30,570 nucleotides of DNA from a virus, in UHGV virus genome UHGV-0106128; one strand, 5' to 3'. A model generated the notes under the pieces. It was not told the DNA's origin. It made no database searches and saw only the letters and a list, made by a program, of their open reading frames with translations. Within the stretch, counting starts at the first letter, position 1; the number at the start of each line of letters is the position of its first letter. The translations under genes and the position numbers were made by a program. Below are positions 10,633 through 30,570 of this stretch, in pieces.

Positions 10633-10645
10633 GTGGGAAAAATTT

Positions 10646-12924: not shown

Positions 12925-14261
12925 TGGGGTTTAATATCGTCACGGTGAATGTGTCCCAGACCATCGGGGCCATTCCCTCGAATTTGCAGCAGATGTCCGC
13001 TGTTCTCTCGTTTGGCTCCACGACTCATGAGCCGGGAAAGCCTGTATTACTCACCCGTAATCAGGATATTAACGATCTGGTAAGAAATCCGATTGCTGCG
13101 TTGTCGGCGGCTGCCGCAGGAAAATCTGCGGCAAACGTCACCGTTACGATGACGCTTCCGGAAGGGAGCAACATCCGACGCGAAAACAGTTCTGAGGTGA
13201 AAATTGTTGTTTCCGGGTGTTCGCCCGACGCGTGGAATGGCGAATATACTGCTACCGTCACGGATGAAAAAACACTGACCTGGACGATTGCTGATTCTCA
13301 GCTTTCCGGTTCGCCAGTGACACTGGGGCAGTTTTCCATTGTTGGCAGTGAAAATCTGGTGACGGCAGTAAACACGTTTTTTGCCCAGGGAAATTCAGTT
13401 GGGATTTACCTGCTGGAGCTGGGAGTACAGAAAGGTGGAGTCAGTAAGGAAATCGCTGCACTGAAAGCTTATATGGAAGATCCGCTCCTGCGTTTTTATG
13501 CGTATCTGGTGCCGCAGCCGTGGGATGGTGACGCAGAGTTTATCAGTCTGGCAAAACTCCACACCGCCAACGAAGCGATGCAGTATTTCTTCGTGCTGAC
13601 GAAAACGCCGGACGACACGAATTACGTTTCGCCTTATGCCGGTATTAAGTCGGTTATTGCAACGGCGGATGATACGTATCCGGCGACAAACGCGGCAGCA
13701 GCCGTAATGTGGAACTATGTTTCCGCATCACCTTCAGAAATCAACAAGGTGCCGCCGATGGCATTTCGCTATCTACAGGCGGTAAACGCCCACAAGGGCA
13801 AAAATTCAATTCTGGTCACGATGACGAAGCAGAATATTAACTACGTCGACACGGGGGCTGAGGGGGGAATTTCCAACACGATTCTGGTGAAAGGCGTTAC
13901 CAGTGACGGTAACGATATGACGTACTGGTATTCCGTGGACTGGGTGCAGATTAATGTCGATATGCAGCTCGCCAACACGGTGATCAACGGCAGCAATAAC
14001 TCAATTAACCCGCTTTACTACAACCAGGACGGGATCGACCGTCTACAGCAGGTCGCACAGGCGGTGTTCAATACGGGCGTATCTTACGGCCTGGTCAACG
14101 GTCAGCCTGTCGTCGATGCAGTGCCTTTCCGCCAGTATATCAACACTAATCCCAATGATTACGGTATCGGGCGTTATGCAGGCCTTTCGGCCTCCTATAC
14201 GCCGATGCGCGGATTTGTCGAAATCATTTTTAACATCAATGTGACAATGCAGCTTTCGTGA
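12924..14261 (+). CDS. tail sheath protein (putative)
   Basis: 445 aa ORF directly followed by a tube-sized gene, chaperone pair and tape measure; downstream baseplate J/V-type genes imply a contractile tail. Confidence 0.5.
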   Translation: MGFNIVTVNVSQTIGAIPSNLQQMSAVLSFGSTTHEPGKPVLLTRNQDINDLVRNPIAALSAAAAGKSAANVTVTMTLPEGSNIRRENSSEVKIVVSGCSPDAWNGEYTATVTDEKTLTWTIADSQLSGSPVTLGQFSIVGSENLVTAVNTFFAQGNSVGIYLLELGVQKGGVSKEIAALKAYMEDPLLRFYAYLVPQPWDGDAEFISLAKLHTANEAMQYFFVLTKTPDDTNYVSPYAGIKSVIATADDTYPATNAAAAVMWNYVSASPSEINKVPPMAFRYLQAVNAHKGKNSILVTMTKQNINYVDTGAEGGISNTILVKGVTSDGNDMTYWYSVDWVQINVDMQLANTVINGSNNSINPLYYNQDGIDRLQQVAQAVFNTGVSYGLVNGQPVVDAVPFRQYINTNPNDYGIGRYAGLSASYTPMRGFVEIIFNINVTMQLS

Positions 14262-14272
14262 GGGACTGAACC

Positions 14273-14716
14273 GTGCCTAATCCAATGATCCCCGTTGGCA
14301 CCCTTAACCGGGTTCGCGCCAGCGTTAAATTCACCTCCCATTCTGAACTGAATGTGTCCGCCTCATTTCTGGCAAAAGAAGGCGTCGAATTGTCCTTTCA
14401 GGGCAATATCACGGAGTTTTTACCCGCTATGACGGGAGCCGTGCAGTCGCCGCAGCCATACATGATTTTACAGGCGCGTGTTCATCTGCTGCGTAGCCAG
14501 GCGCTGGGAAAACAATTCAAGGCGCAATGGGAAAAGAATGCCACGATCGGCGACGCAAAAGTGTATAGCGACAGCACGGTGTTCGGTGACTTCGATATCT
14601 ATAACACGGCGATCACCAACGTGCAGGATATGACCTTCGCCGGGGGCGAGCCGGGTGTGGCCATCACCATTACTGGTACGTATTACATCAACTCTGAAAT
14701 GTGGGATCTGGTATGA
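14273..14716 (+). CDS. tail tube protein (putative)
   Basis: 147 aa; GTG 14273 after AGGGA; position between sheath and chaperone genes. Confidence 0.5.
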   Translation: MPNPMIPVGTLNRVRASVKFTSHSELNVSASFLAKEGVELSFQGNITEFLPAMTGAVQSPQPYMILQARVHLLRSQALGKQFKAQWEKNATIGDAKVYSDSTVFGDFDIYNTAITNVQDMTFAGGEPGVAITITGTYYINSEMWDLV

Positions 14717-15330
14717 AAATCGCGCGAAATTTAAACCTGATTATTCCTGTCCGGACAGAAAAGGGTAATGGCTGGATCCATGCCACGCCGATCAGCAAAG
14801 AGGTGTTTAAAGAGCATTTCTTCATTCTGAGTAAAACTTTTTCTGCCATTTTTTCAGAAGGTCTTGGCGTCGTTGCGGGTCCGCGTATCGCTTTTTTGAT
14901 GCTGGAGCGGATCTCGCGTGATTCTAATATCTGGGAAGGTGATAAAGGGGTCCGTAATACACTTGTTAATGAGGTCATTCGCCTGGCAAACCTTGTTTAC
15001 CCAGTGGAGGGTAAAGGCTACGACACAATCCCTCTCGATATGGCGCTGGAGCGTGAAATCATTGATTTGGATGAAGTGGCGGGTGAGCTCATTTTTTTTA
15101 CATGCGTCTCGTCGATAAATTCACCGGAGCAGGCGAAGGGGACTATGGATGTGGTCAATGGAGTATGGAGCACTCAATGCTCGTTATTGAATCTTACGGA
15201 ATGGATCGCTTCATTGCCGACATTGAAATCAGCCGCCAGTTCTGGCGCGACGGCGAACACGTCATCAGCGACATCCTCGACTACTCAGCCGGAGCCGGAT
15301 TCAGAGACATCTGTGCAGATTCCGGCCTAA
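14713..15330 (+). CDS. tail assembly chaperone (zero-frame product)
   Basis: ORF track 14701..15330; ATG 14713 overlaps the tube stop (ATGA); lies directly upstream of the tape measure gene. Confidence 0.6.
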   Translation: MKIARNLNLIIPVRTEKGNGWIHATPISKEVFKEHFFILSKTFSAIFSEGLGVVAGPRIAFLMLERISRDSNIWEGDKGVRNTLVNEVIRLANLVYPVEGKGYDTIPLDMALEREIIDLDEVAGELIFFTCVSSINSPEQAKGTMDVVNGVWSTQCSLLNLTEWIASLPTLKSAASSGATANTSSATSSTTQPEPDSETSVQIPA

Positions 15331-15395
15331 ATGTAAAAACAGCAGCTCAGTTTCGTGAGCTGCTCAAATTCAAAAATCCCGCAGGAGTATTGTGA
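14713..15395 (+). CDS. tail assembly chaperone, predicted -1 frameshift product (about 227 aa)
   Basis: Frame of ORF 15102..15395 opens at 15087 and overlaps the zero frame across an 8-T run (15092-15099); its stop TGA 15393-15395 overlaps the tape measure ATG 15395. Confidence 0.45.
15093..15099 (+). other. candidate -1 slippery heptamer T_TTT_TTT (within an 8-T run) for the chaperone frameshift
   Basis: Zero-frame codons ATT TTT TTT ACA; the -1 frame continues YMRLVDKF... Confidence 0.45.
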
Positions 15396-17470
15396 TGGCT
15401 GGTAACCAGATGCCAGTTCTGACGCTGGATGTTAATGAAGAACACCTCAGGCGGCTTGAGGCGATATTTGAAAAGTATCGCAACGGACTGATGATTGGCC
15501 CTGCCGGTACGCCGCTTAAAATACCTTCAAATACCGGTCCGGGAGGTGGCTCTTGGCAGACAACCACAGGCGGAGAAGCCAATCAGGCTCCCAGGAAACC
15601 ATCTTCACCCGCGCCAGTTCTGGCTGCTTCCACTGATGGACGTTTAAGGGATGAAAAATGGCGCTTTGTTGGCAGCGGGAAAACACCTGATTCGCTGGTG
15701 AGCAACTATAAAGGTCGCGGCGAAACGATGTTTGATAAGTACCTCAGCGGGCTGGGGAAAAACGCCAAACAGACGCTGAAAACTTACAAGCAGATCAATT
15801 CTACGCTACGGACGACCACTTCGAGATTAAACAACCTGTTTAAAACCACCGTATCGTGGGGGACAAAACTTGCGGTTATGGGCGTTGCCGGGCCGTTTGG
15901 CTTTGGCATGATGGCTCGTAATGTTGTAGAGAAACAGAAAAATGCTGATGAATTGCAGGCAACTCCAGGAGAGTTAAAGGCGGCAGAAAGCACTTATTCG
16001 CCTTATTTTTCCGGTGTTGGTAATTTGCTCAATACACTGGCAGCCGCGCAAAATGACACTCAGCATTCTGCCTACAACGGGCTAATTGGATTAGGGATAA
16101 ATCCTAAAAAAGGGGCAGCAGAAAATCTTCCTGTATTGTTAGAAAGAGTTGCTGCTCTTGCAAAGGAGTATGAGGGAACCGGACTTACTCAGAGCATGCT
16201 CAGAGGTCGTGGCCTTGGATGGGTAAATTTTGGTATTGCTAACCAGTTAGTCAAATATCAGGACAAAATACCTGAACTCAACAAAGAGTTTTTATCGCGA
16301 GCTTCTCAGAATGACTCGTTGCTCACCTCTGGACATACAAGCCAGTATCAGAATCTTACCAGCAACTTAGAAAATAACTGGGATCAACTTACCAGCGGAT
16401 TTCAGGGGGCAATGTCGGGTAACTCTGTACAGCTAATTAGAATATCTAATGGTGTAAAGAATGCTGGTCTAAATTTCCTTAACGGTGAGAACTTTAAAAG
16501 AATTTTGACTGATGTTGAAACAGGTCTGGATAAACTTGGTAAGTATGTAAATGGCCCGGATTTTAATAACGACCTGAATAATTTTGCCGAAAATGTTGCA
16601 AAGGTTGTTAAGGCACTTAGCGGGTTTGTTGGTTTTGCGGTTGAACATCCCTGGCTTTTTGGGGCCGCAGTACTTGCTGGACCATCGAGAGTTGGTGCTG
16701 TGGCAGCCACAACGACCGGAGTTGCCGCCCGTGTTGTTGGTGGAAGTCTTCTTGGGGCTACAGCCGGAACAGTAGCTGGATTGGCTATTCCTACAAATGA
16801 CACACCTACCACCAGTGAGGAAATGAAAGGGCTGGAGGGGCGTTTCAACTTTGATTATTTTAACGAAGTGCAGGAGTGGCAAAAAAACAATCCGGGTAAG
16901 GTCTGGCCTGGAGGATTGCAGGGATTTTCAAATCAAGTAAACAGATCTGCATATTTATCCAGAGGGATCAGGAATAACAATCCCGGAAATCTTAATTTCG
17001 CAGGACAAAAAGGGGCTACCTTGGAATCGGGGCCAAATGCCCGTTTTGCCAGCTTCCCGACGATGCTGGAAGGCATTGCTGCCTTAGATCGGCAGGTAAT
17101 GCTATACCTGAAACGCGGCAAAAATACGATTGATCAGATTATTGATATTTATGCCCCTTCATCTGATGGAAATAACACATCGTCCTATAAAAGCTATCTC
17201 TCTCAGTACACCGGATTAGGTGTTAAGGAGAAAATCGATGGTTCTAATTTTGAGATAATGAGAAAGCTAATTCAGGGCATTATTAACCATGAAAATGGGG
17301 ACGCCGCTCGTGCAGTAAGTGGCGATGATGTGATGCGGGCGCTGGCAATGAACCGGGGAAACGTATATTCACCAAATAATACTTCTCAGGTAATCAGGCT
17401 CGACGTTCAACAAAAACCAGGTTCCGACATACTGGCACAACTCGCCGGAATGCAACAAATACCGGGGTAA
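15395..17470 (+). CDS. tail tape measure protein
   Basis: ORF track 15392..17470; GCAGGAG then ATG 15395; 691 aa; Gly/Ala-rich hydrophobic segments (GFVGFAVEHPWLFGAAVLAGP..., GAVAATTTGVAARVVGGSLLGATAGTVAGLAIP); follows the chaperone pair. Confidence 0.75.
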   Translation: MAGNQMPVLTLDVNEEHLRRLEAIFEKYRNGLMIGPAGTPLKIPSNTGPGGGSWQTTTGGEANQAPRKPSSPAPVLAASTDGRLRDEKWRFVGSGKTPDSLVSNYKGRGETMFDKYLSGLGKNAKQTLKTYKQINSTLRTTTSRLNNLFKTTVSWGTKLAVMGVAGPFGFGMMARNVVEKQKNADELQATPGELKAAESTYSPYFSGVGNLLNTLAAAQNDTQHSAYNGLIGLGINPKKGAAENLPVLLERVAALAKEYEGTGLTQSMLRGRGLGWVNFGIANQLVKYQDKIPELNKEFLSRASQNDSLLTSGHTSQYQNLTSNLENNWDQLTSGFQGAMSGNSVQLIRISNGVKNAGLNFLNGENFKRILTDVETGLDKLGKYVNGPDFNNDLNNFAENVAKVVKALSGFVGFAVEHPWLFGAAVLAGPSRVGAVAATTTGVAARVVGGSLLGATAGTVAGLAIPTNDTPTTSEEMKGLEGRFNFDYFNEVQEWQKNNPGKVWPGGLQGFSNQVNRSAYLSRGIRNNNPGNLNFAGQKGATLESGPNARFASFPTMLEGIAALDRQVMLYLKRGKNTIDQIIDIYAPSSDGNNTSSYKSYLSQYTGLGVKEKIDGSNFEIMRKLIQGIINHENGDAARAVSGDDVMRALAMNRGNVYSPNNTSQVIRLDVQQKPGSDILAQLAGMQQIPG

Positions 17471-17473
17471 ACC

Positions 17474-18142
17474 ATGTCACTTAATTACTTTGGACAAGCT
17501 TTCAAACTGGCGTTTGAAGTATCGCCCATTCTTTTAGTTGATGGCATAGCGTCGAAAATTCCCGGCGGGGTGATGCCGATTGCTGTTTTGACCGAAGGCC
17601 TAAGCATTGTGAACGGTCTGCTGCATGGCGAGATTCGTACACGCTCGATGGCGGCATTTACCCCGATGGCGGGGACAACGTTGGTTCAGCAGGATATTTG
17701 CAACCTGAATTTCTATAACCAGGTAACGGCAGCGAATGCGACCGTCAAGAAGCCTAACCGAGTAGTCATGCAGATGATCCGTCCGGCATCAACGGAGGAC
17801 GGTGGCTACATCACTAAGGGGATGACATTCACGGCGCTGAAAATGGCGCTCGATATGCATAACCAGTATGGCGGTTGTTACACCGTAATGACGCCATCTT
17901 TCATCTACACGCGCTGTCTGATGCGGTCGTTTATCGATACATCCGGTTTCTCTGAGCAGAACAAGCAGGTTCAGCACACCTGGCAGATTGAGTTTGAGCA
18001 ACCATTGTCGTCTGTCGAACAAACGGTAAAAACGCTGGCGAGCGTTCTGGATAAATTTGATAAAGGGATGCCGTCAGACGGGGCGCTATCGTGGTCAGGT
18101 ATTAAGAACCAGGTCGTGCAGGAGTTTGGTTTTGGCTTATGA
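17474..18142 (+). CDS. tail / baseplate protein (hypothetical)
   Basis: ORF track; position after the tape measure. Confidence 0.5.
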   Translation: MSLNYFGQAFKLAFEVSPILLVDGIASKIPGGVMPIAVLTEGLSIVNGLLHGEIRTRSMAAFTPMAGTTLVQQDICNLNFYNQVTAANATVKKPNRVVMQMIRPASTEDGGYITKGMTFTALKMALDMHNQYGGCYTVMTPSFIYTRCLMRSFIDTSGFSEQNKQVQHTWQIEFEQPLSSVEQTVKTLASVLDKFDKGMPSDGALSWSGIKNQVVQEFGFGL

Positions 18143-18405
18143 CAACGTTAATTCCTTTCAAACCTGACGGGCGAGGACCATTTCAGTTCACGGCCAGAAT
18201 CGGAGAATATGAAACATTCGCCCGCGTTCCGTTTAATCTGTATGCAAATCGTTACTACCTGGAACTGAAAGACAGTTCAGGCGACGTGATTGTATACATG
18301 CCTTTGATCGCGTCACCTGACAGTTACGACATCAATCTGGCGCTGCCTTGCTCACCGGGGAAACTTGTTTTTCGCAAAAGTACGAATCAGTTTGAGGTTT
18401 CGTAA
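18139..18405 (+). CDS. small tail / baseplate protein (hypothetical)
   Basis: ORF track; ATGA overlap with upstream gene and TAATG overlap with downstream gene. Confidence 0.45.
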   Translation: MTTLIPFKPDGRGPFQFTARIGEYETFARVPFNLYANRYYLELKDSSGDVIVYMPLIASPDSYDINLALPCSPGKLVFRKSTNQFEVS

Positions 18406-19412
18406 TGCGTTATTACCGACTGGAAATTATTAATCCTAAAACAGGCAAGCCGCCAGTGGATAGCAATGGAAAACCCATTGGACCTTTTGATACCAATGAA
18501 ACACTAGGATGTGGGTTGCATATTGAATTTGACTTTGAAGTAACCGGCCTGGATGTAGTCTGTTCGGGTACGATGCTGACGATCTATGGATTACCAATTG
18601 ACATGCTGAAGCAAAGCGTAAGTTTGCAGGGTTGTCTGGTACGTATGAAAGCAGGCTTTGTTCAGGGGTTACCACTGGCAAATAAGGATCAACAGGGGGA
18701 GGTAATCTATGGTGAAATTTATCTGGCCTATGCCAACTGGATCGGCACGAACCAGACTTTAAACCTGGTAATAAATCCAAGCATACGCAAAACCGATGAC
18801 GGTAAACCTTTTTCAATTGAGGGGCAGGGGGAAGCAGGGGAAAGGGTGGGCGATGTTTTAGTCCGCGCTTTGCAAAAAGCATATCCCAATAAACTTATTG
18901 ATTGCACAGTCAGCGACAACCTGGTTTTGCCAGAGCCGTGGACGGGCAAATATACGGAGATTGGTTCGCTGGCTATGGTCGTAAAAAACGCCTCTATTGC
19001 GATGATGCGTAATGAAAGGTATAGCGGAATCGCCATCAGTATTCTTTCCGACAGAATACGAATCTACGATAACGCATCGGCAAAGTGGGGTGAGCCAAAA
19101 ACAATTCATGCCCATGAACTGGTCGGGCAGCCGACATGGATAGCGCCGTTTACCGTCAGTTTCAAATGCCCTATGAGAGGCGATATCAGATGTGGTGATG
19201 TGGTTAAACTGCCGGAGGGGCTATATTCTGGCGCTGCGTCGATTGTGATGGCTAATACAACGGTACCCAGCGTTATCGCAAAAAATTCGACCACGTTCAC
19301 CGGGAAATTTCTTGTGAAATCAGTCAGACACATTGGTTCGTATCTGACAGCCGATGGCGATGCCTGGGTGACGGTATTTGAGGCATATGCTGAGAACTGG
19401 GCGAGGGTGTAA
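18405..19412 (+). CDS. baseplate hub-like protein (P2 gpD / Mu gp44-like, putative)
   Basis: 335 aa; assignment by order relative to the tape measure and the spike-like gene. Confidence 0.4.
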   Translation: MRYYRLEIINPKTGKPPVDSNGKPIGPFDTNETLGCGLHIEFDFEVTGLDVVCSGTMLTIYGLPIDMLKQSVSLQGCLVRMKAGFVQGLPLANKDQQGEVIYGEIYLAYANWIGTNQTLNLVINPSIRKTDDGKPFSIEGQGEAGERVGDVLVRALQKAYPNKLIDCTVSDNLVLPEPWTGKYTEIGSLAMVVKNASIAMMRNERYSGIAISILSDRIRIYDNASAKWGEPKTIHAHELVGQPTWIAPFTVSFKCPMRGDIRCGDVVKLPEGLYSGAASIVMANTTVPSVIAKNSTTFTGKFLVKSVRHIGSYLTADGDAWVTVFEAYAENWARV

Positions 19413-20125
19413 TGTCAAACGCTCAAAAATTACCGTTTCTCCGAACACTGTCGGAGATGATGACCAGTTCTGGTAACCAGCAAGCCGAGCTTAAAGGCCG
19501 CGAATTGCCCTGCCATGTTGTCGATATCTGCGGGCAAATAGTGACAGTTCAGTTTGATATGCTGCCGGAGGGGATCAACTTCCCGCAGATAACAATCCCT
19601 GTCGCCACATTCCCGTATATCCGTTACCCGATACAGCCGGGCGATCGAGGAGTAACAATTGCCGCTGATGTATCACTGCGCGGTGTGTCCGGATTGGGAA
19701 CCGGTATGGCAACGCTTTCTTACTCGATGTCGCTCACTCCCCTGTTTTTCGTGCCACTGGCAAACAAGGAGTGGTCCGACGAAGATCCGCAAAAAATCGT
19801 TTTGTACGGTCCGGATGGCGCGATCCTCAAAACAGAGGACGGCAGTAGCTCGGTAATGGTGGCTCTGGAAGAAATCAGGCAAAAGTCGAAAGCTGTTTAC
19901 CTCGAGGCCGAAGATATTTTCCTGAACGGGAAAATTCACCTCAACGGACCGATCGTCCAGGACAAAGCCCAGATGAAGGATACAACCGCTTCGCTGATTG
20001 GTCCTCTTAATGTCGAGATGGATGCAGTTATCAACGGCGTGAGCGTCAGCGGCCACAGTCACGATGTGACTGGTGTTCAAAGCGGCAGTAGCACGATTAC
20101 GTCGAAGAAACCAAATCCTGGTTAA
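19412..20125 (+). CDS. baseplate spike / assembly protein V-like (putative)
   Basis: 237 aa; position before wedge and J genes; C-terminal Gly/Ser/Thr-rich tip; followed by a strong terminator. Confidence 0.45.
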   Translation: MSNAQKLPFLRTLSEMMTSSGNQQAELKGRELPCHVVDICGQIVTVQFDMLPEGINFPQITIPVATFPYIRYPIQPGDRGVTIAADVSLRGVSGLGTGMATLSYSMSLTPLFFVPLANKEWSDEDPQKIVLYGPDGAILKTEDGSSSVMVALEEIRQKSKAVYLEAEDIFLNGKIHLNGPIVQDKAQMKDTTASLIGPLNVEMDAVINGVSVSGHSHDVTGVQSGSSTITSKKPNPG

Positions 20126-20166
20126 TACCGGTTCATTTCACTTTAAATTCTAACCATAAAACGAAA

Positions 20167-20200
20167 CCCCCGACTGTTGGCCCAGTCGGGGGTTTCTGTT
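20167..20200 (+). terminator. rho-independent terminator
   Basis: 10 bp perfect stem CCCCCGACTG (20167-20176) / CAGTCGGGGG (20183-20192), 6 nt loop, then TTTCTGTTTCT. Confidence 0.65.
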
Positions 20201-20249
20201 TCTCACCTTGAATACGCAAGGGATGATTACGTATGTTTGGAGGTCTTCC

Positions 20250-20411
20250 GTGATTAATTTTAGCGGAGGAGACTGGATTGTGAAAGCCTTAAAATTAGTG
20301 GCAAAAAGCAATACCTTACGACGCATGTATTACACCGCTGCACTCGTAGCTTTAGCATTTGCCTTTTCACCAGTACTGACAGAGTTAGTTAAAGTGATGG
20401 GGGCACGATGA
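20250..20411 (+). CDS. small hypothetical protein with hydrophobic C-terminal segment; start uncertain (GTG 20250 or GTG 20280)
   Basis: ORF track 20208..20411; GGAGG 20239-20243 before GTG 20250; possible membrane helix YYTAALVALAFAFSPVL. Confidence 0.3.
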   Translation: MINFSGGDWIVKALKLVAKSNTLRRMYYTAALVALAFAFSPVLTELVKVMGAR

Positions 20412-20755
20412 GAACATGGGGCCGCGTCACCGACGCGAACGGCAACAAAAAATGGGTTGCAGTAGAATCTGACGCCAACGGTGATTTCTCCTACGGCTGG
20501 CTGACGACGCTCATTCAGACGTTAAAGCTGGGATTGGGGGAGTCGCCGTTTTACGCGAATTACGGTATTCCTGCACAGCAGTGCATCGTGCAGCAGATTT
20601 ACCCAGACTACTATGTGAACATGGTTCAGCAACAGTTTGCTGGGTATTTTGCATCACTGGCAATTTCAAAGGTAGATGGAGCAGATAACCCCACCTATAA
20701 CATCGATGTTGTGTTTTTTAATGGGACCAGTTACCGGACGCAGGTGCCGGTATGA
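20408..20755 (+). CDS. baseplate wedge protein (gpW / gp25-like, putative by synteny)
   Basis: 115 aa; ATG 20408 overlaps the upstream stop; position between spike and J genes as in Mu and P2 tails. Confidence 0.4.
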   Translation: MRTWGRVTDANGNKKWVAVESDANGDFSYGWLTTLIQTLKLGLGESPFYANYGIPAQQCIVQQIYPDYYVNMVQQQFAGYFASLAISKVDGADNPTYNIDVVFFNGTSYRTQVPV

Positions 20756-20847
20756 ATCACAGTTTTATGATAAAACTTTTACCTTGGTTTGGAGTGCTGT
20801 AGAGAGATATTTTAGGGGGGGCGAGTAATTTTCTAAGCTGGAGCATA

Positions 20848-20890
20848 TTGACATATATTATTTCGGATTTGCAAAATACATATTGTTACC
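20848..20890 (+). promoter_or_regulatory. candidate promoter of the AT-rich cargo gene
   Basis: Consensus TTGACA at 20848-20853 followed by A/T-rich sequence; the -10 element is ambiguous (TATATT, TACATA and TATTGT are all candidates). Confidence 0.3.
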
Positions 20891-20905
20891 ATGGAGGAGA
20901 CAAGC

Positions 20906-22066
20906 ATGGAAAATTTTGCAAATAAGTTAAAAATACACACAGAGCATGTTGCAAAAATGGGGGTGTTTTGTACAACTGAAGAAACGACAAAACAAGCACT
21001 CATTATGCCATTTCTAGATATTCTTGGTTTTACTCCGTATGATCCAAGAAAAGTCAAAGCTGAGTATAGTGCTGACTTCCCCGGGGTTAAGGCTAATGAA
21101 CGGGTTGATTACGCTTTATTTTGTCATGATGTTCCTGTGATGTTCATTGAGGCGAAATCGTTTTCAGAACAAATTGATAATCACTGCCCACAGCTATCAA
21201 GATATTTTAATTCAACACCGGAAGTTACTATATCAGCCATTACAAATGGTGTTGAATGGCGTTTTTTTACGGATTTGAAACAAAAAAACATAATGGATTC
21301 AACGCCGTTTTTAAAAATAAGAATGGATTCTCTAACTCACTCCGATATTACACAATTATTTCGTTTTCGTTATGATAAATTCAAACCAGAGGCTTTGCGG
21401 ACACTGGCTGAAGAAAGTGTTTATTTGAATTCATTTACTAAAACAATCAGTTCTAGTCTTCGTGAAGTTGATCTGGAGTTTGTTCGATATGTTGCTAGTC
21501 GTTCAAATATTGAGAGACAACTTAATCAGAGATTTCTTGAGTTCGTGACTCCATTAGTTAAACAGGCCGTTGAGCGCGCTGTTAGCGCAATGGTGGTTTC
21601 CGGGCTATCTACACAACCGGTAGAGCAAACTAAAGAAAATGATGCAACGGATACACAAGTTAATAACGCCATTGTTGATGAAGAAAACCCCAACATAATA
21701 ACCACAGCCAAAGAATTGGAACTATTTGAAAGGGTAAAACAAATCATACAAACAGAAGATAATATAGAATATAAAGATACTGAGTCATATTTTGGTGTAC
21801 TATTGAATGGTAAAACTAATAGATGGCTGTTAAGATTTTATGATAAAAAATCTTCATTTATAACATTACCTATTTCGCTTAGTGAAGTTCAGTTGAATGA
21901 AATAAGACGAGCTCGACTTGATACGGATGGTAAAAGGATACATATAACTAATCCGGAAGATATACTTCGCATATCTGGTTTGATTCTGGATTCATACGAG
22001 TATGTTAAAAATGATGATAATTTCCGCCGAGGGTCCAGAGTGAGCAGTTTAGAAGAGGTTGAATAA
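20906..22066 (+). CDS. 386-aa protein with N-terminal PD-(D/E)xK nuclease-like domain (type I restriction HsdR N-terminal-like); C-terminal ~250 aa unassigned; candidate defence gene
   Basis: ORF track 20891..22066; GGAGGAG 20893-20899 then ATG 20906; visibly AT-rich; motifs PFLDILGF, ERVDYALF and VMFIEAKS (D68, E82, K84); flanked by a promoter-like sequence and an intrinsic terminator. Confidence 0.75.
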   Translation: MENFANKLKIHTEHVAKMGVFCTTEETTKQALIMPFLDILGFTPYDPRKVKAEYSADFPGVKANERVDYALFCHDVPVMFIEAKSFSEQIDNHCPQLSRYFNSTPEVTISAITNGVEWRFFTDLKQKNIMDSTPFLKIRMDSLTHSDITQLFRFRYDKFKPEALRTLAEESVYLNSFTKTISSSLREVDLEFVRYVASRSNIERQLNQRFLEFVTPLVKQAVERAVSAMVVSGLSTQPVEQTKENDATDTQVNNAIVDEENPNIITTAKELELFERVKQIIQTEDNIEYKDTESYFGVLLNGKTNRWLLRFYDKKSSFITLPISLSEVQLNEIRRARLDTDGKRIHITNPEDILRISGLILDSYEYVKNDDNFRRGSRVSSLEEVE

Positions 22067-22070
22067 GTAA

Positions 22071-22094
22071 AAAACCCGCGAAAGCGGGTTTTTT
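22071..22094 (+). terminator. rho-independent terminator of the cargo gene
   Basis: CCCGC (22075-22079), GAAA loop, GCGGG (22084-22088), T6 (22089-22094). Confidence 0.75.
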
Positions 22095-22106
22095 AATGGA
22101 GTAAAT

Positions 22107-23333
22107 ATGTCAGAAATACCAATTACTATGACCAGTGCGGGGGCGCAGCCTACGCCACCCAATGATTTGCTCGCGAATCTTATCACCAGAGTTGCCGAAA
22201 AAGTACCTGGATATACAGCCAACCTTCCGGCGGGGCTTATTACAGACCTTGCCAGCACGGCTGTCGGGGCGCTGGCATTAATAGACCAGGCGCGGGTGGA
22301 CCTTATTAACTCCGTAAGCCCATACGGCGCAAATATTCCGTTACTGATGCAACTCGGAAACATTTATGGAGCACAGAAGGGATTAAGTACAAATACGGCG
22401 GTATACGTGGTGTTTGAGGCGTTGCCGGGGTTTGGTATCCCTAAAGGATTTGTTGTCGGTGACGGCAACTACCAGTATGCAGTTTCCCGCGATACGGTGG
22501 TGCCGGAAAGCGGGCAGACTGAGCCAGTCTACTGTGTGGCCACAACGTCAGGCTCATGGGCTGTACCGGAAGGAACCGTAACGCAGGTCATTACATCGGT
22601 ACCCAAAGATCAGCCTGTAAAATGCACGAACCTTACCGCAGGGATGCCAGGTCAGGAGGCGCAAACGTGGGCATCTTACCGCGCCGAAGTCATGGAGTCC
22701 GGCATGTTTGGTGTGCAGGGAACACCGGATTGCTTTAAAGCGATGCTCAAATCAGTAAGCGGTGTGCGAGAAAACCTGATTTCTTTCCGGCAGTCGTCGC
22801 TGGGGAAATGGGTTGCGGTTGTTGGTGGCGGTGATCCGTATGATGTGGCTTATGCTATTTACAAATCTGTACCGGATATTTCGAAACTGACCAACGATGT
22901 TAGCAATCCATCTGGTGCGGCAGTGGAAAAACGCACGGTTTCAATAACCGTTTCGCCAGATGTTTATCAGGTGCCGTTCGTTATCCCGTCATCACAAAAC
23001 GTCATGGTGCTAATCACCTGGAACACTGTATCTGATGATTATGTTGATCCGGCGGGTATTGCTATGGCTGTGCAGCAAAACGTTGCTGATTACATCAATT
23101 CTATTGAAGTCGGACACCCGATAAATCTGCTGCGAATCCAGGATATTTTTACCAGTTCCGTCAGATTGTTGGTTGATGCGACGTTGATCTCAACAATCAG
23201 TGTGAGCATTGGCATTAATGGCCATATTGTTCCTCCGGCAAAAGACACAAGCCTGGTTTATGGCGATACCTATTCCTATTTTTCGACGGTGGTATCACAG
23301 GTTCAAGTTAACAAGTATGCAATATCTGACTGA
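22107..23333 (+). CDS. baseplate J-like protein (Mu gp47 / P2 gpJ family)
   Basis: 408 aa; GGAG then ATG 22107; N-terminal region fits the Baseplate_J pattern (GYTANLPAGLITDL..., LMQLGNIYGAQKGLSTNTAVYVVFEALPGFGIPKGFVVGDG). Confidence 0.7.
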   Translation: MSEIPITMTSAGAQPTPPNDLLANLITRVAEKVPGYTANLPAGLITDLASTAVGALALIDQARVDLINSVSPYGANIPLLMQLGNIYGAQKGLSTNTAVYVVFEALPGFGIPKGFVVGDGNYQYAVSRDTVVPESGQTEPVYCVATTSGSWAVPEGTVTQVITSVPKDQPVKCTNLTAGMPGQEAQTWASYRAEVMESGMFGVQGTPDCFKAMLKSVSGVRENLISFRQSSLGKWVAVVGGGDPYDVAYAIYKSVPDISKLTNDVSNPSGAAVEKRTVSITVSPDVYQVPFVIPSSQNVMVLITWNTVSDDYVDPAGIAMAVQQNVADYINSIEVGHPINLLRIQDIFTSSVRLLVDATLISTISVSIGINGHIVPPAKDTSLVYGDTYSYFSTVVSQVQVNKYAISD

Positions 23334-23943
23334 AAAAATTCTCCCTGCTTATCCGTTTGTGCAGTACAGAGATGATCCGAATGTTGTTGCGTTCTTTGAT
23401 GCATACAATGAAATTGCTCAGGAATACCTCGATTCACTCAACAATCTGGCATTGCCATGCTGGACATCGGAATCAATAACCGGGCAATTGCTGGACTGGA
23501 TTGCTCTCGGGATTTATGGCGTTGAAAGGCCTTTACTACAGGTTTCCGAGGAGGCTATTGCACGCGGCGCATACGATACCATTGAATACAATACAATCCC
23601 TTATGCGGCAATGCGGAATTATGTTCCGGGGCAGGCATCGTATGTTCCGGATGATTATTTCAAGCGAATATTAACTTGGAATTTTTATAAGGCTGACGGT
23701 TCGCATTTCTGCATTGACTGGTTAAAGCGCCGTGTGGCACGGTTCATTCATGGGAAAAACGGAATAGACCCGCCGTTGCAGCACACTTTTGATGTGAGCG
23801 TGACTGTATCGGACAGTGTTTTTTCTATTCAGATACCAGAATATGGTGATGGTATAGGCTATTTTCTGAAAGATGCCATTGACCAGAAATATGTAAAACT
23901 CCCTTTTATTTATTCCTATGCAACAACGGTGATTCAAAAATGA
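23323..23943 (+). CDS. tail protein I-like (P2 gpI / Mu gp48-like, putative)
   Basis: ORF track 23209..23943; ATG 23323 overlaps the J stop; position between J and the tail fibre. Confidence 0.5.
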   Translation, partial: YLTEKILPAYPFVQYRDDPNVVAFFDAYNEIAQEYLDSLNNLALPCWTSESITGQLLDWIALGIYGVERPLLQVSEEAIARGAYDTIEYNTIPYAAMRNYVPGQASYVPDDYFKRILTWNFYKADGSHFCIDWLKRRVARFIHGKNGIDPPLQHTFDVSVTVSDSVFSIQIPEYGDGIGYFLKDAIDQKYVKLPFIYSYATTVIQK

Positions 23944-25325
23944 TTCTTGGATTCGGAAATAACGTTGTTTCAGCACTGGCTGGTGATATTACGACGATTC
24001 AGACTGATATTCCGGTGATGCCGGGCACGGGAGCTAAATTTGCAAAATTGCTTTCTGCCGATTTTGAAAATAAATCGAACGGGCAACGCGTCTATGCAAA
24101 AATTACGCTTACCGATAATAAAGAGTCTGCATTTGAGATTTGTCATTTGGTATCGGTAAGCGGTGATGTGTTGAAAGTCATTCGTGGGCAGGAAGGAACA
24201 ACCGCGAAAGGTTGGTCCCTTAATGATGTTGTGGCTAACTTTGCCACGCGTGGTTCGGAAAACTATTTCGTACAGATAGCGCAGCTTCAGAGCGGTCATT
24301 ATATTGCGGGTGTTGCTGGCGGCACTGCAAACGCACTGACGCTGGAAGTTCCCTCGACGTTTTTTGTTAATGGAGGTACAGATTGGACGCTACGAACTCC
24401 GATTATCGTTTTCCCCGTTCAGAACAATACCAACGCCGCGACGCTTCAATTAACACTAGGCGGAAAGGTTCTTGGTTCGTTCCCACTTTATAAGGGGAAC
24501 AAGTCCGAGCTGGTAGCGAATGATATCATTAAGGGTATTCCTTTGATTTGCCTTCTTGATAGCGAGAAAAGCTATTTCAGTGTGATAAACCCCGGCAATA
24601 TCTATTCAGATTTTGATCTGCGATATGTAAAAAAATCTGGTGATTTGATGACCGGGGAGCTGAAAATCCGTGGTGTTAATGCGCTGAGGATTTTCAACGA
24701 AGCCTTTGGTCTGATTTTTCGTCGTTCGGAAGAGTGCCTGCATCTCATTCCTACCAGGGAAAATCAGGGCGAAAACGGCGATATTGGTCCACTTCGCCCG
24801 TTCACTATTAATCTGCGGACGGGCGAAATATCCATGTCGCATAAAGTGTCTGTTGGCGGTGGTTCGCAGGTCAATGGTGCGCTGGGTATCGGCGTTCAGA
24901 ACGCGCTGGGCGGAAACTCAATTGCTTTCGGGGATAACGATACGGGTATAAAGCAGAATGGCGACGGCCTGCTGGATATTTATGCCAATGGCCAGCATAT
25001 ATTCCGTTTTCAGAACGGGACGCTACAAAGCAACAGGTCCATGAACATTTCTGGTAGGGTAACACCGTCAGACTACGGAAACTTTGATGCAAGGTATAAG
25101 CAGCGAACAGAGGGAGTGCAGGATGTGCGCTATGGTTCCGAAATGTATTACAACCCTGGCAGCAATGTAATCTCCTGGACATATCACGCTCCTGCGGGAC
25201 ACGGATTGTCAGGGATATCGATATCGGATACTGGTAAAAATTCAGCGGATAACGTCAACGGCGTGTATTACCGACCGCTTCAGAAACTGATTAACGGCAC
25301 CTGGTATAACGTGGCGAGTGTTTAA
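23940..25325 (+). CDS. tail fibre protein (P2 gpH / Mu S-type)
   Basis: 461 aa; ATGA overlap with upstream gene; motif RYVKKSGDLMTGELKIRG resembles the conserved KSGDxMTG motif of phage tail fibres; followed by a Tfa gene. Confidence 0.7.
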   Translation: MILGFGNNVVSALAGDITTIQTDIPVMPGTGAKFAKLLSADFENKSNGQRVYAKITLTDNKESAFEICHLVSVSGDVLKVIRGQEGTTAKGWSLNDVVANFATRGSENYFVQIAQLQSGHYIAGVAGGTANALTLEVPSTFFVNGGTDWTLRTPIIVFPVQNNTNAATLQLTLGGKVLGSFPLYKGNKSELVANDIIKGIPLICLLDSEKSYFSVINPGNIYSDFDLRYVKKSGDLMTGELKIRGVNALRIFNEAFGLIFRRSEECLHLIPTRENQGENGDIGPLRPFTINLRTGEISMSHKVSVGGGSQVNGALGIGVQNALGGNSIAFGDNDTGIKQNGDGLLDIYANGQHIFRFQNGTLQSNRSMNISGRVTPSDYGNFDARYKQRTEGVQDVRYGSEMYYNPGSNVISWTYHAPAGHGLSGISISDTGKNSADNVNGVYYRPLQKLINGTWYNVASV

Positions 25326-25327
25326 CA

Positions 25328-25873
25328 ATGTTGCATTTAAAAAATATTACTGCAGGCAATCCGAAAACCGCAGAACAATATCAGATGACAAAACAACATG
25401 GTATCACCTGGCTTTTTTCGGAAGATGACAAAAACTGGTATGAAGAGCTGAAAAATTTTGCCAGTGACACCATAAAAATGGTTTACACCGGAGACGGGCG
25501 CGTGGTGTGGGTCGGTAAGGATGTGACAGGCATTGAACCCCGTAACGCCAGTGTTATTGAAGTTCCTGATATTACCGCTAACCGCCGTATTACCGTGCCT
25601 GGTTACTGGTTTTACCGCGACGATAAATTTGTCTTCGACTACAAACTTAAAGCGGAAGATGAGCGCGATGCCCTGTTACAACGGGTCAGCATCATGACCA
25701 GCGAATGGGAAAAAGACCTGCTGCTGGGATTAATCAGTGATGAAGACAGGGAGAAGCTGAAAGCGTACCGCATTTACGCGAAATCGCTGCAGGCGATGGA
25801 TTTCAGCACCATCGCTGATAAAACCTCATATAACGCCATTGAATGGCCCGTCTCTCCGGAAGCCTCTTCCTGA
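25328..25873 (+). CDS. tail fibre assembly protein (Tfa chaperone)
   Basis: 181 aa directly downstream of the fibre gene; N-terminus MLHLKNITAGNPKTAEQYQMTKQHGITWLFSEDDKNWYEEL is Tfa-like. Confidence 0.65.
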   Translation: MLHLKNITAGNPKTAEQYQMTKQHGITWLFSEDDKNWYEELKNFASDTIKMVYTGDGRVVWVGKDVTGIEPRNASVIEVPDITANRRITVPGYWFYRDDKFVFDYKLKAEDERDALLQRVSIMTSEWEKDLLLGLISDEDREKLKAYRIYAKSLQAMDFSTIADKTSYNAIEWPVSPEASS

Positions 25874-25896
25874 TTTAATTTATCGCGAGAAAAACT

Positions 25897-27321
25897 ATGT
25901 CTGTAGTGATATCAGGTGCGCTGATTGATGGCGCAGGCATCCCCATGTCCGGATGCCACATTATTCTGAAATCCCGGGTAAACACCTCAGAGGTGGTGAT
26001 GCGCACAGTTGCCGACGTGGTGACAGGAAACTGTGGCGAGTACTCTTTTAAGGCGCAGACCGGAAAATATTGCGTATATCTGAAACAGGACTGGCGCGAC
26101 GAGTACTGTGTTGGCGATATTGCTGTATACGATGACTCAAAGCCCGGCACGCTGAATGATTTTCTGACAGCCATCGATGAAGGTGACCTCAAACCCGACG
26201 TGGTGAAACGTTTTGAGGAAATGGTGGCGCAGGCGCAGCAGAGCGCGGAAACTGCAACAGAAAGCGAACGACAGGCAGGGCAACATGCAGACGCTGCCGC
26301 CCGTGCAAAAGAAGAGGTAAAAAAACTGGCGGAAGGTGTTCAGCAGAACGCCGACGCGGTTGCGGAGGGTAAACAACAGGCCGAAAATCTGGCCTCACGG
26401 GTTGAGGATACCGCCGCGGAGGTCAGGCAGGATGCTGAAGCCGCGAAAAAGGCCGCATCCGGTGCAGAGCAGGCCAGAGCAGATATTGATACTGCGTTAT
26501 CTGCGACACTGAAAACGGCGAATCGTTTATCAGAGCTGGCTGATGAAGGTGAAGAGGCTCAGCAGGAATCCCGTGCTAATCTTGGACTGAAAAGCGCTGC
26601 CACAATGACGCCACAGAGCGACATTCGTGACCGGACTGAAGGGCGTCTGGCGACACCTGGCGCATTTGGTTTTGGGCATATTTTTTTGCCCGCAGAGCGT
26701 ATCCGTTTTAACACAGAGGATGATTTTCTGTCCTGGGTAAGGAATGCGACGCCGGGTGAATATTTTGTTGAGGGTGACAGTAAAATCATATCCGGAGGTG
26801 TGTTGTTTAACGGGATGGTCCGCATCCGGTGGGTTGAGGCACGCAATAATCCACCGGAGCCGCGATATACAGCAAAGGCCATTATTTTCTACGGTATTAA
26901 TGGCGATGTTTATTACAACCGCTACTGGACAACAGGTAATGGTTATCTGACTGGCTGGGAAAATCTGAAGATTACCTCACAGGACATTATCTCTCTTCTG
27001 TCCGGTATTGCTCCCGGTACCACGGACGGCTGGTACGGTGCAGGCAGTCTTGTACTGGCGGCTTATAACGGTAAGGGAGACGCAGACACCGACCGCCGGA
27101 TAAAACGCGGTTACAGCTATCCGGGGTCACGCCTGAGCGCGGTTGAATTTATGTGTCACGGCACGACCGGTAGCGGGGTTGGATATAACGGCAGCGTTTC
27201 CGTATATGTGCGGGGTTCTGGTGGTGGTATGCCGGGGTCATATCGGGCACTGTCAGGTGATGGGCTCGGGTCTGCCGGGTCAGCCAGTGTCATGATTGGT
27301 TTGTTCATACGTATTGCGTAG
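25897..27321 (+). CDS. side tail fibre protein (lambda Stf / StfR-like N-terminal domain)
   Basis: 474 aa; N-terminus (SGALIDGAGIPMSGCHIILKSRVNTSEVV...YCVYLKQDW...IAVYDDSKPGTLNDFL) resembles the lambda Stf N-terminal region as I recall it; Ala/Glu/Gln-rich coiled segment; Gly-rich C-terminus. Confidence 0.7.
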   Translation: MSVVISGALIDGAGIPMSGCHIILKSRVNTSEVVMRTVADVVTGNCGEYSFKAQTGKYCVYLKQDWRDEYCVGDIAVYDDSKPGTLNDFLTAIDEGDLKPDVVKRFEEMVAQAQQSAETATESERQAGQHADAAARAKEEVKKLAEGVQQNADAVAEGKQQAENLASRVEDTAAEVRQDAEAAKKAASGAEQARADIDTALSATLKTANRLSELADEGEEAQQESRANLGLKSAATMTPQSDIRDRTEGRLATPGAFGFGHIFLPAERIRFNTEDDFLSWVRNATPGEYFVEGDSKIISGGVLFNGMVRIRWVEARNNPPEPRYTAKAIIFYGINGDVYYNRYWTTGNGYLTGWENLKITSQDIISLLSGIAPGTTDGWYGAGSLVLAAYNGKGDADTDRRIKRGYSYPGSRLSAVEFMCHGTTGSGVGYNGSVSVYVRGSGGGMPGSYRALSGDGLGSAGSASVMIGLFIRIA

Positions 27322-27328
27322 GTGTTTT

Positions 27329-27892
27329 ATGGAAATAAAACGCATCGAAAATGCGCGTTATCTTGAAAATGGCGCGATTGACTGCGGGGTGTTGTTTGAT
27401 GGCATGGATGAACCGGTTCCGTATACGGCAACTGCCACGGATACAGCAGAGACAGGGCAGCGAGTCTGGCAGGAGCTGCAAAGCGGGAGATGGGGAGAAA
27501 TAACGCCGTTCACCGTCACGCCAGAGATGCTGGAAGCAGCAAAAGCAGCCAAACGCCGGGAAATTGAAGCATGGCGTACAGAGCAGGAGGCGCAGCCATT
27601 CATTTTTGAATGGAACGGTCATAGCTGGAACGGGGGGCCGGATTCTATGGCCCGTCTTTATCCGGTGGCGATGGCATCGAAATCCGACACAGCACGGGAC
27701 GTCATGACGTGGGGCGATGCGGAAAATCAGCAGGTAAAGTTGTCAATGCAACAACTGGATGAGCTACTTACTGCAATGGTTCAGGCGCAGGTTGATCGCA
27801 ATGATGAAATTTATCGCCGTCAGCGAGAGATGAAAGAAGCGTTAAATACACTGAAGGATCTGAGCTCAATCAGAAAGCTGGCAATTAACTAG
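27329..27892 (+). CDS. tail fibre assembly protein (Tfa-like, second copy)
   Basis: ORF track 27296..27892; AGGTG then ATG 27329; 187 aa directly downstream of the Stf-like gene. Confidence 0.55.
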   Translation: MEIKRIENARYLENGAIDCGVLFDGMDEPVPYTATATDTAETGQRVWQELQSGRWGEITPFTVTPEMLEAAKAAKRREIEAWRTEQEAQPFIFEWNGHSWNGGPDSMARLYPVAMASKSDTARDVMTWGDAENQQVKLSMQQLDELLTAMVQAQVDRNDEIYRRQREMKEALNTLKDLSSIRKLAIN

Positions 27893-27980: not shown

Positions 27981-28934
27981 TCAACAGTTACTAGTGTGTT
28001 TCTTGTTATAATCGTCAAGTAAAAAATCTTTGTGTTTTTCAGCCAGTAAACCTACTTCCCCCCATTTCAAAATATGTGTCCAGTATCCCATGCCGACAGA
28101 TGATATTGGAGCGTAAAAAATAATAATTCTATTTTTTGCATTTTCGTCCGTTATACCACGAGAAATTGCAGTGTTATTTTCTATTCGCACTCTGAAATCA
28201 GGATAATAACAAGAACCTTTTAATTTTAACCATACGGTTGAATGATTAGTATGTTGTTCTATTGAACTTATTTCACCAAAATAAAACCCCGGTTCTTCTT
28301 GTTCAGAGCGGATATCAGAAATACTTTTTAATGCATCGCAAAAAATATAACTGCGAGCGAGACTAGTGCCAGTGGTGATAAATATCTCTTTATAGTAGTT
28401 TTCTTGAAAGTTAGTACATAGAGCTTGCACGCTTGTTATCTTACTGGGCAGATTGAATGTTTCACCTTGATGACGAGAGATGGGAATTTCAACAAATACC
28501 CCATTTTTACTTTCAAAGTACATTTCCGTTCGAGTGGCGGAAGAATCTGTATTATCACGATATACAAGTTCTGGTCGTTCCTGCATGAATCCGGATATGA
28601 TAATGACATCATTGTCGCTAACAGCTTTTTGGGCTTCTTCTTCACTAGAATAGCGTTTCCCGATAATAGCTCCGCTTCTCAACAAACAAAAAGGAGCATT
28701 TGGATTTGGGTAGTGGCGGAAGAGAGCTTCTCGCCCGTCAGTCATAATCGTTATACTTGACTCTGATGGTATACGATTAAGTGGCTCATAACATTGGGGA
28801 CAAATGAGATGATCTTTCATTTCTTCTTGATATTCTAATGGTCCAACACTTGTACGAACTAACTGTGCTGTACTGTGTATGCTTTTATCCCATACAGGAT
28901 CGAAATAAGCATAGGCAATGCGGCGGCTAGTCAT
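27981..28934 (-). CDS. hypothetical 317-aa protein, AT-rich orphan cargo at the prophage end; no recognisable domain
   Basis: ORF track; minus-strand ATG at 28934 with GGAG 8 nt upstream; visibly AT-rich codon usage unlike the structural genes; single CPQC motif. Confidence 0.7.
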   Translation of the reverse strand: MTSRRIAYAYFDPVWDKSIHSTAQLVRTSVGPLEYQEEMKDHLICPQCYEPLNRIPSESSITIMTDGREALFRHYPNPNAPFCLLRSGAIIGKRYSSEEEAQKAVSDNDVIIISGFMQERPELVYRDNTDSSATRTEMYFESKNGVFVEIPISRHQGETFNLPSKITSVQALCTNFQENYYKEIFITTGTSLARSYIFCDALKSISDIRSEQEEPGFYFGEISSIEQHTNHSTVWLKLKGSCYYPDFRVRIENNTAISRGITDENAKNRIIIFYAPISSVGMGYWTHILKWGEVGLLAEKHKDFLLDDYNKKHTSNC

Positions 28935-29117
28935 GAGTTATCTCCGGTAAGGTAGAATATATAGGATTCGAACAAAGTTTTGGCTGTTGTATTGTTTGAG
29001 CAATTACTAAGCCTATTTTGCATAGTAACCAAACAAACATATTTGTTACAACCCATTTACATAAATTTAAGAATAAAAATATGTGCAAACGGCCTTAATT
29101 TAGCTTGAATACTGAGG

Positions 29118-29161
29118 GCAAAAATGGGGCAAATGCCGTAAAAGGTGCAAAAATGGGGCAA
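29118..29161. repeat. 15-bp perfect direct repeat GCAAAAATGGGGCAA (29118-29132 and 29147-29161); candidate integrase arm-type or operator sites
   Basis: Seen directly; a third, inverted copy of the GGGCAAAAAT core at 29251-29263 abuts the ttcA fragment. Confidence 0.5.
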
Positions 29162-29263
29162 CAAAAATGTTGGTTATTGTGGTTTGTTGTAGTTGTTGAT
29201 GTGTCTTAATTTATTGAAAAATAAATAAAATACTTATGCGTCAGATAGTTGTGATTTTTGCCC

Positions 29264-29317
29264 TTACTTGTTCAGGTTGTATTGTTCTTTCTTACTAATT
29301 TCTTGATTTTGCGACAT
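29264..29317 (-). pseudogene. ttcC: 5' fragment of ttcA (ttcC-like remnant) marking the prophage/chromosome junction (attR)
   Basis: Minus-strand ATG at 29317 encodes MSQNQEISKKEQYNLNK then TAA (29264-29266); KKEQYNLNK matches the TtcA N-terminus as I recall it, and the match breaks exactly where the GGGCAAAAAT motif starts. Confidence 0.55.
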
Positions 29318-29460
29318 TTAAAAGCGACTCAATTCGTTATATGGCATCAGAAGAGTATGCGTCATGCCGGAACGCCCAGCATAAGAAATCTGATATAAAA
29401 ACTGTGGCGTGTATGGTACGGATTAGAGGGGAAAATGTCAGCACATTTGCGAAATGAATC

Positions 29461-29487
29461 AAAAAGCCCGCAGCAATGTGCGGGCGT
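29461..29487 (-). terminator. rho-independent terminator downstream of uspF
   Basis: Plus-strand AAAAA-GCCCGCA-GCAATG-TGCGGGC; on the minus strand this is a stem-loop followed by a U-run. Confidence 0.55.
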
Positions 29488-29492
29488 TAGTG

Positions 29493-30008
<516 letters not shown>

Positions 30009-30067: not shown

Positions 30068-30570
30068 TTAGAACTGATAAACCAGACCTAAAGCGACAAT
30101 ATCATCGGTAGAGATGCCGTTGGCAGCGTAGAAGCTGTCATCTTCATCCAACAGGTTGATTTTATAGTCAACATAGGTGGACATGTTTTTATTGAAATAG
30201 TAAGTCGCGCCAACATCGGCGTATTTAACCAGATCTTTATCATCAACACCTGCCGGGTTGTCTGCACCACCGGCAGCGTGCAGGTCACGGCCTTTAGACA
30301 TCAGGAAAGAGACTGCCGGACGCAGACCAAAATCAAACTGGTACTGTGCAGTAACTTCAAAGTTCTGGGTTTTGTTAGCAACAGCATAATCGCTGTCGCC
30401 AAACGGGGTCATATTACGCGTTTCTGAATACATGGTTGCCAGGTAAATATTGTTAGCATCGTATTTTAGCCCAGCAGTCCACGCGTCTGCTTTATCACCA
30501 CCCGCCGCAGTATGGTTAACCTGGTCATTGGTGCGGTCAGAAGAGGTGTATGCCGCACCAGCGCTAAAGC
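30068..30570 (-). CDS. ompN: outer membrane porin, 3' part only (OmpC/OmpN family); gene continues beyond the window
   Basis: C-terminus ...[16 protein letters not shown] and beta-barrel pattern typical of general porins; adjacency to uspF suggests ompN; stop TAA at 30068-30070 on the minus strand. Confidence 0.6.

Follow-up and report, generated by a model that had tools for sequence, protein, structure and literature searches.

Prophage Rac of Escherichia coli K-12 is located between ttcA and the fragment ttcC', its attL and attR sites are imperfect copies of each other, and four TtcA residues change upon its excision (Liu et al. 2015, PMC4632033). The same study characterized YdaQ (XisR) as an excisionase that binds the K-12 attR, and distinguished two classes of strains by their TtcA N-terminus, according to occupancy of the site. 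The Rac-like prophages Sp10 (O157:H7 Sakai) and CP-933R (EDL933) were likewise reported in ttcA, where their attL/attR arrangement and the switch of the TtcA N-terminus follow the same pattern (Liu et al. 2015). The Rac/ttcA material is covered as well in a review (PMC6379469), where e14, inserted in icd, is an example of the gene-rebuilding prophages: a surrogate end of the target gene, supplied by attP, keeps that gene whole, and the opposite junction retains a duplicated piece of it as a short pseudogene. Here we analyzed the virus genome UHGV-0106128, a stretch of 30,570 nucleotides (nt) hereafter called the window, which carries close to its right end a minus-strand open reading frame (ORF) of 17 codons at 29264-29317. 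We are highly confident that this ORF is the attR scar (a ttcC pseudogene) of a full-length Rac-family prophage integrated by IntR in the 5' end of ttcA, with attP providing a substitute start for the gene. The coordinates of all features are given in Table 1.

Translation of the window from the minus-strand ATG at 29317 gives MSQNQEISKKEQYNLNK, directly followed by a TAA at 29266-29264. All 54 nt are identical to ttcC (b4638) of K-12 MG1655, which also translates as MSQNQEISKKEQYNLNK before a stop, and the alignment with the K-12 Rac right junction is base for base in both the scar and its upstream leader. In the MG1655 annotation, the feature “cryptic prophage Rac” ends with ttcC, given as a 51-nt pseudogene, and uspF and ompN come next. 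The native TtcA N-terminus reads MSQNQEISKKEQYNLNKLQKR..., and the scar matches the intact ttcA 5' end of strain 3347558, where the site is empty, at 50 of 51 nt and 17 of 17 amino acids, with an identical upstream leader. This intact ttcA is identical down to window position 29268; the final codon is AAG here and AAA in the empty site, a synonymous difference. We then aligned the junction in four sequences, namely the window, the K-12 Rac right junction, the junction of a related prophage in strain C5 and the empty ttcA locus of 3347558. Across all four, no difference occurs in the ORF or in the ~100 nt upstream of it. The empty site reads on as ttcA (…AAC AAA TTA CAA AAA CGT…), whereas the three lysogens change to …AAC AAG TAA GGG CAA AAA TCA…

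Homology to the empty site spans positions 29268-30570 of the window at 99.7% identity and ends at 29268, so the scar places the right boundary of the prophage at 29267/29268. Homology to K-12 begins further to the left, at 29117 (97.2% identity), and therefore 150 nt of the phage-side P' arm are common to Rac. The region 29150-29520 is matched by 5405 of the 5426 complete E. coli genomes searched. About a third of the genomes (1837/5426) cross the junction into the P' arm and thus carry a Rac-type attR, while many others start matching exactly at 29268, with an intact ttcA adjoining uspF. That nearly all these genomes match the region, and that empty-site homology stops exactly at 29268, shows that the ORF did not arise by chance. 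A chance short ORF merely resembling TtcA is also ruled out by the identity of the 54 nt and leader to K-12 ttcC, by the 50/51-nt match to ttcA and by the uspF/ompN synteny. A sequence-only reading of the window had identified the fragment as the TtcA N-terminus and had placed it beside uspF and an ompN-like gene, in a junction reproducing the right end of Rac in K-12 (ttcC-uspF-ompN). This identification was correct, and the flanking genes are confirmed by the NCBIfam match of UspF and by the annotated uspF-ompN-nifJ loci, to which the ompN 3' part is 97-99.7% identical in nucleotide sequence; the MG1655 annotation agrees with the junction as a whole.

In a further class of genomes the junction is lost and only an intR fragment adjoins ttcA. 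For example, in NZ_CP029327 and NZ_CP065152 the ttcA-uspF interval contains only a ~230-nt intR fragment beside ttcA and other pseudogene debris, without the ttcC/attR junction. These minimal-remnant strains therefore extend a decay series of the locus, which comprises the empty site, the full-length prophage, the K-12-type prophage and the minimal remnant.

The remainder of the prophage can be read in the genome of E. coli GmM062 (NZ_CM183653), which is 100% identical to the window over 1-25000 and differs from it across the 30,570 nt by only one single-nucleotide polymorphism and one indel, the latter in a T-run. Its coordinates give a core-to-core prophage length of ~48.8 kb, of which the window represents the right 30.5 kb. 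From the left, the order is ttcA (attL), intR, xisR, a DUF1187 gene, ralR, recT, recE, a gene at the racC position, ydaE, kilR and ydaF, then a repressor pair, ydaT, replication genes, hokD, late-control genes, holins, an endopeptidase gene, the content of the window, attR and uspF. The Rac early gene set (ralR, recT, recE, the racC position, ydaE, kilR, ydaF and ydaT) is annotated as such in GmM062, and its K-12-alignable segments are 92-99% identical in nucleotide sequence. With GmM062 as a proxy for the window element, IntR is identical to that of K-12 Rac at 405 of 411 amino acids (98.5%) and XisR at 71 of 71 (100%). Nucleotide identity to K-12 is 99.2% from the left host flank through intR, xisR and ralR, and 92-98% in the segments from recE through kilR, ydaF/G, ydaT and ydaW. 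The immunity region and the recT allele differ from those of K-12, which indicates mosaicism, as is usual for temperate coliphages. Within the window, a ParB-like protein of 263 amino acids encoded at 1084-1875 shows 95% identity to K-12 YnaK (87 amino acids) over its first 86 residues; K-12 ynaK is therefore a truncated version of this gene, which the window has in full. On these comparisons, the window element is a full-length member of the Rac family, and K-12 Rac appears to be a deleted derivative or relative of such phages.

The att core region of the window corresponds to a 26-bp sequence that is annotated as att in the record of Escherichia phage Rac-SA53 (KU052037), where the attL and attR 26-mers are the features named “attP” and “attB”. 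In the lysogen considered here, three bases of the 26-mer differ between attL and attR, and exact identity is limited to the 15 bp ATACAACCTGAACAA at window positions 29268-29282. Since only these 15 bp are exactly common to both sites, the crossover must lie within them; the corresponding identity block in K-12 is the full 26 bp. The P arm contains TTTGCCCC repeats. The repeats of the P' arm are kept in K-12, Rac-SA53 and the window amid otherwise drifting sequence, and these conserved arm repeats are plausible candidates for arm-type IntR or Xis binding sites. The motif TTGCCCCA occurs twice in the window for 1.6 occurrences expected, so that the bare 8-mer count is not above chance and constitutes no evidence by itself; the case for arm sites is made by conservation in three elements. 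An Rfam scan of 27800-30570 gave no match.

The scar is best explained by IntR-mediated integration. The tyrosine recombinase IntR, with XisR aiding excision, would act on attP and on an attB that spans codons 9-17 of ttcA, in the 51 nt at the start of the gene. The phage attP would bring a substitute ttcA start (ribosome-binding site, ATG and 17 codons, here MQENQKNTKKEIYNLNK), leaving an intact hybrid ttcA at attL, downstream of intR. The promoter, leader and 17 initial codons native to ttcA are displaced by ~48.8 kb and now lie at attR, where an immediate TAA from the phage P' arm closes their frame. Excision would restore the native TtcA N-terminus. The attL of GmM062 has the hybrid gene: its ttcA is a complete ORF starting MQENQKNTKKEIYNLNK and adjoining intR and xisR. 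This hybrid N-terminus carries six substitutions relative to the native MSQNQEISKKEQYNLNK, and that of K-12 (MQENQQITKKEQYNLNK) carries four, in agreement with Liu et al. 2015. Given the near-identity of proteins and sites to those of K-12, integration and excision of the window element would follow the same steps, and this particular prophage may still be able to excise and form particles.

Several observations weigh against assigning the element to a full-length Rac-family prophage. The window itself has no attL, intR or early region, all of which were read from the near-identical GmM062. PGAP splits the continuous ParB-like ORF at 1084-1875 into a “ynaK pseudogene”, flagged as partial, and a second coding sequence. 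The K-12 relics ynaA, lomR, stfR, tfaR and pinR are not homologous to the late module of the window, except for 43% identity over 117 amino acids at a fibre N-terminus; the assignment to a “Rac family” is therefore based on the modules for integration and early functions, on the P' arm and ynaK, and on Rac-SA53 as a named relative. That the K-12 right-end genes could be decayed copies of those in the window was considered and dropped, homology being confined to the fibre N-terminal domain. To judge from their alignment, K-12 Rac and the window element are mosaics that differ in the late region. Finally, a contiguous ttcA-type attP was not found in any free phage genome, as a blastn search of 50,697 phage records with the predicted attP returned prophage-form half sites only. 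The attP was for this reason reconstructed from attL and attR, and it agrees with the Rac-SA53 annotation. The best phage match, PP818812.1 (“Actinobacillus phage vB_Apl-pPE4”), was inspected for attP and has a different integrase/att region with no ttcA-type core. Its matches extend over 82% of window 1-25000, with ~96% identity in nucleotides, and it has recT, recE, kil and ydaT; its Actinobacillus pleuropneumoniae host label is doubtful, and it looks like an E. coli Rac-type phage.

The sequence-only reading had proposed a different phage at the Rac integration site, here taken as an unrelated phage with its own integrase that took the same ttcA attB used by Rac in K-12. Nucleotide alignment of the window to K-12 Rac is indeed limited to 29117-30570 and a ~300-nt ynaK stretch, any relationship of the K-12 tail relics stfR and tfaR to the window fibres is distant, and PP818812, with ~96% identical late genes and recET and kil yet an unrelated att/int region, shows that the same body can carry another integrase. 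However, the GmM062 element combines an intR and an xisR encoding near-identical and identical proteins to those of K-12 Rac with the Rac early genes. The P' arm and its repeats are common to K-12 Rac, the K-12 ynaK is a truncated copy of the intact gene in the window, and the closest deposited phage bears the name and annotation of a Rac phage. An unrelated phage is thus largely refuted as an explanation, and we regard it as very improbable. The same reading had stated that the element is not a degraded Rac; this part holds, as the late modules are present, while the notion of a different phage does not survive the Rac IntR/XisR, early genes, P' arm and ynaK.

With the scar assigned to attR of a Rac-family prophage, we considered whether it might be more than debris. 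The last prophage gene before attR, ORF317, could be driven by the stranded ttcA promoter through the 17-codon ORF, or else the 17-amino-acid peptide could be made and be functional. The two genes are co-oriented and 330 nt apart, a GGAG lies ~10 nt upstream of the ORF317 ATG, and a consensus scan detected no terminator-like site between them and, upstream of ORF317 on its strand, no promoter-like site other than that of the ttcA leader. The K-12 genes beside attR (ynaM, ynaE and pinR) are likewise co-oriented with ttcC. However, the promoter and terminator sites are consensus matches only, not above shuffled expectation, and constitute a weak lead. Moreover, in Rac-SA53 attR follows the last fibre gene with no further gene in between; the ORF317 arrangement is therefore not a conserved feature of the family. 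We consider it unlikely that the scar has either role, and slightly less likely still that the prophage would use the stranded ttcA promoter/leader to express ORF317, as a host promoter captured for a lysogenic-conversion or defence gene.

ORF317 itself has no match in Pfam, PHROGs, PADLOC, NCBIfam or PDB sequences. Its small family comprises 24 clusters, all with “hypothetical” as source name, and the named members are mostly from Enterobacterales, with one from Pseudomonas. A cysteine/histidine motif, CPxC…H…C (CxxC...H...C), is invariant in the family. The protein has a predicted OB-fold domain. Its AlphaFold model has a mean predicted local distance difference test (pLDDT) score of 71.7, and residues ~88-166 are poorly modelled. 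A homologue from Serratia marcescens, 57% identical, is located in a restriction/defence island, between a ScoMcrA/SRA gene and GmrSD and beside type I restriction-modification genes. ORF317 was found at this position in 3 of the 5426 E. coli genomes.

Table 1. Features of the window, its right junction and the att sites (positions in the window unless another genome is named)
Feature	Position	Strand	Sequence, basis or remark
Late region of Rac-family prophage, lysis genes onward	1..27892	plus	PHROGs, Pfam, annotation; ~95% identical to Rac-SA53
ParB-like/TAGT pair	1084-2800	plus	
terS	2991-4082	plus	
terL	4072-5400	plus	
Portal	5416-6855	plus	PHROG 146, 1e-74; Pfam Phage_portal_3
Head genes	7614-10589	plus	
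Tail sheath	12924-14261	plus	
Tape measure with transglycosylase domain	15392-17470	plus	
Baseplate	to 23333	plus	
Two tail-fibre and assembly pairs	23940-27892	plus	
ORF317, cargo gene, last prophage gene before attR	27981..28934	minus	Same strand as ttcC
Phage P' arm of attR	29117..29267		Conserved with K-12 Rac and Rac-SA53
P' arm direct repeats, 15 nt	29118-29132 and 29147-29161		GCAAAAATGGGGCAA
Inverted partial copy of P' repeat, abutting core	29254-29264		
ttcC-type remnant: native ttcA start codon and 16 codons	29264..29317	minus	MSQNQEISKKEQYNLNK; closing TAA from phage P' arm; identical to K-12 ttcC (b4638)
att core region, 26 bp	29268..29293		AAGAAAGAACAATACAACCTGAACAA (ttcA sense); annotated as att in Rac-SA53
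Native ttcA leader/promoter region (uspF-ttcA intergenic), stranded at attR	29318..29492	minus	99.7% identity to empty site
Promoter-like site in ttcA leader	29441-29413		Consensus scan only
uspF terminator hairpin, predicted	29485-29466		Consensus scan only
uspF, host gene	29493..29927	minus	NCBIfam UspF equivalog, 303 bits (cut-off 166), and annotated loci
ompN 3' part, host gene cut by window end	30068..30570	minus	Nucleotide identity to annotated loci
attB (ttcA sense)			AAGAAAGAACAATACAACCTGAACAA / ATTACAAAAACG
attR of window (ttcA sense)			AAGAAAGAACAATACAACCTGAACAA / GTAAGGGCAAAAATC
attL of GmM062 (ttcA sense)			AAGAAAGAGATATACAACCTGAACAA / ATTACAAAAACG
Predicted attB junction sequence			...AAGAAAGAACAATACAACCTGAACAAATTACAAAAACG...
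Predicted attP junction sequence			...AAGAAAGAGATATACAACCTGAACAAGTAAGGGCAAAAATC...; reconstructed from attL and attR

The late region was examined with PHROGs and Pfam, which identified a complete morphogenetic set (small and large terminase, portal, tail sheath, tape measure, baseplate wedge and tail fibres), the protease and major head matches being distant only. By gene content, the packaging, head, tail and lysis sets are complete. The completeness of the packaging, head and tail modules, put forward earlier from the sequence, is thus borne out by terminase, portal, head, sheath, tape-measure, baseplate and fibre genes. The RefSeq name of the portal protein is “anti-CBASS protein Acb1 family protein”, against its portal profile matches, and this name is probably misleading.

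Just upstream of terS, the ParB_N-domain protein is followed by a TET-associated glycosyltransferase (TAGT, PF20691), and the two genes may form a DNA-modification cassette. The PADLOC match of the 263-amino-acid protein covers the ParB-like N-terminus of a type II methyltransferase model. Within the baseplate module, a variable slot is occupied at 20891-22066 (plus strand) by a gene encoding a 391-amino-acid protein, whose sole domain is the type I restriction domain HSDR_N. The same slot contains an antirepressor and other small genes instead in strain C5, Rac-SA53 and pPE4, and the HSDR_N gene looks like a moron or defence-type insertion. The two fibre/assembly pairs (23940-25325 with 25328-25873, and 25897-27321 with 27329-27892, plus strand) have distal fibre parts that diverge strongly from those of Rac-SA53 and C5, a host-range mosaic of typical kind.

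Already on record (GenBank MG1655 b4638 and KU052037; PMC4632033) are the scar and the att sequences, as well as the switch of the TtcA N-terminus and the occurrence of full-length Rac-type prophages in ttcA. The scar is of practical use as a boundary marker and for correct assignment of the prophage to its family, and has little weight as a discovery. Taken together, ynaK, the P' arm and IntR/XisR point to K-12 Rac being a deleted relative of phages like the window element.

Compared with the described systems, the locus resembles K-12 MG1655 ttcC (b4638)/attR in its 17 codons and stop and in the host flank (leader, uspF and ompN), all identical, and in the 150-nt P' arm, which is homologous and includes the repeats. 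The K-12 prophage differs to the left of this arm, where it carries ynaM, ynaE, pinR, tfaR and stfR; at this place the window carries ORF317 and another set of fibres. At 23 kb, K-12 Rac is also defective, versus ~48.8 kb with a full late region for the window element. For Sp10 and CP-933R, the likeness to this element is known from the description of Liu et al. 2015. The e14-type prophages differ from the ttcA case in the end of the gene that is exchanged, since in ttcA the 5' end, including promoter and start codon, is replaced and not the 3' end. The closest deposited phage is Rac-SA53, a Rac-type prophage of full length that sits in ttcA and has genes for LT-IIa toxin. It shares with the window element the ttcA site, the annotated 26-bp att sequences at attL/attR, IntR (403 of 411 amino acids identical) and XisR (71 of 71), and its late genes match 75% of window 1-25000, with an identity of 95%. 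The cargo is different: Rac-SA53 has LT-IIa and pertussis-like toxin genes, an IS1 and a third fibre gene of greater length, and it lacks ORF317, the HSDR_N protein and, in the form seen here, the ParB/TAGT pair.
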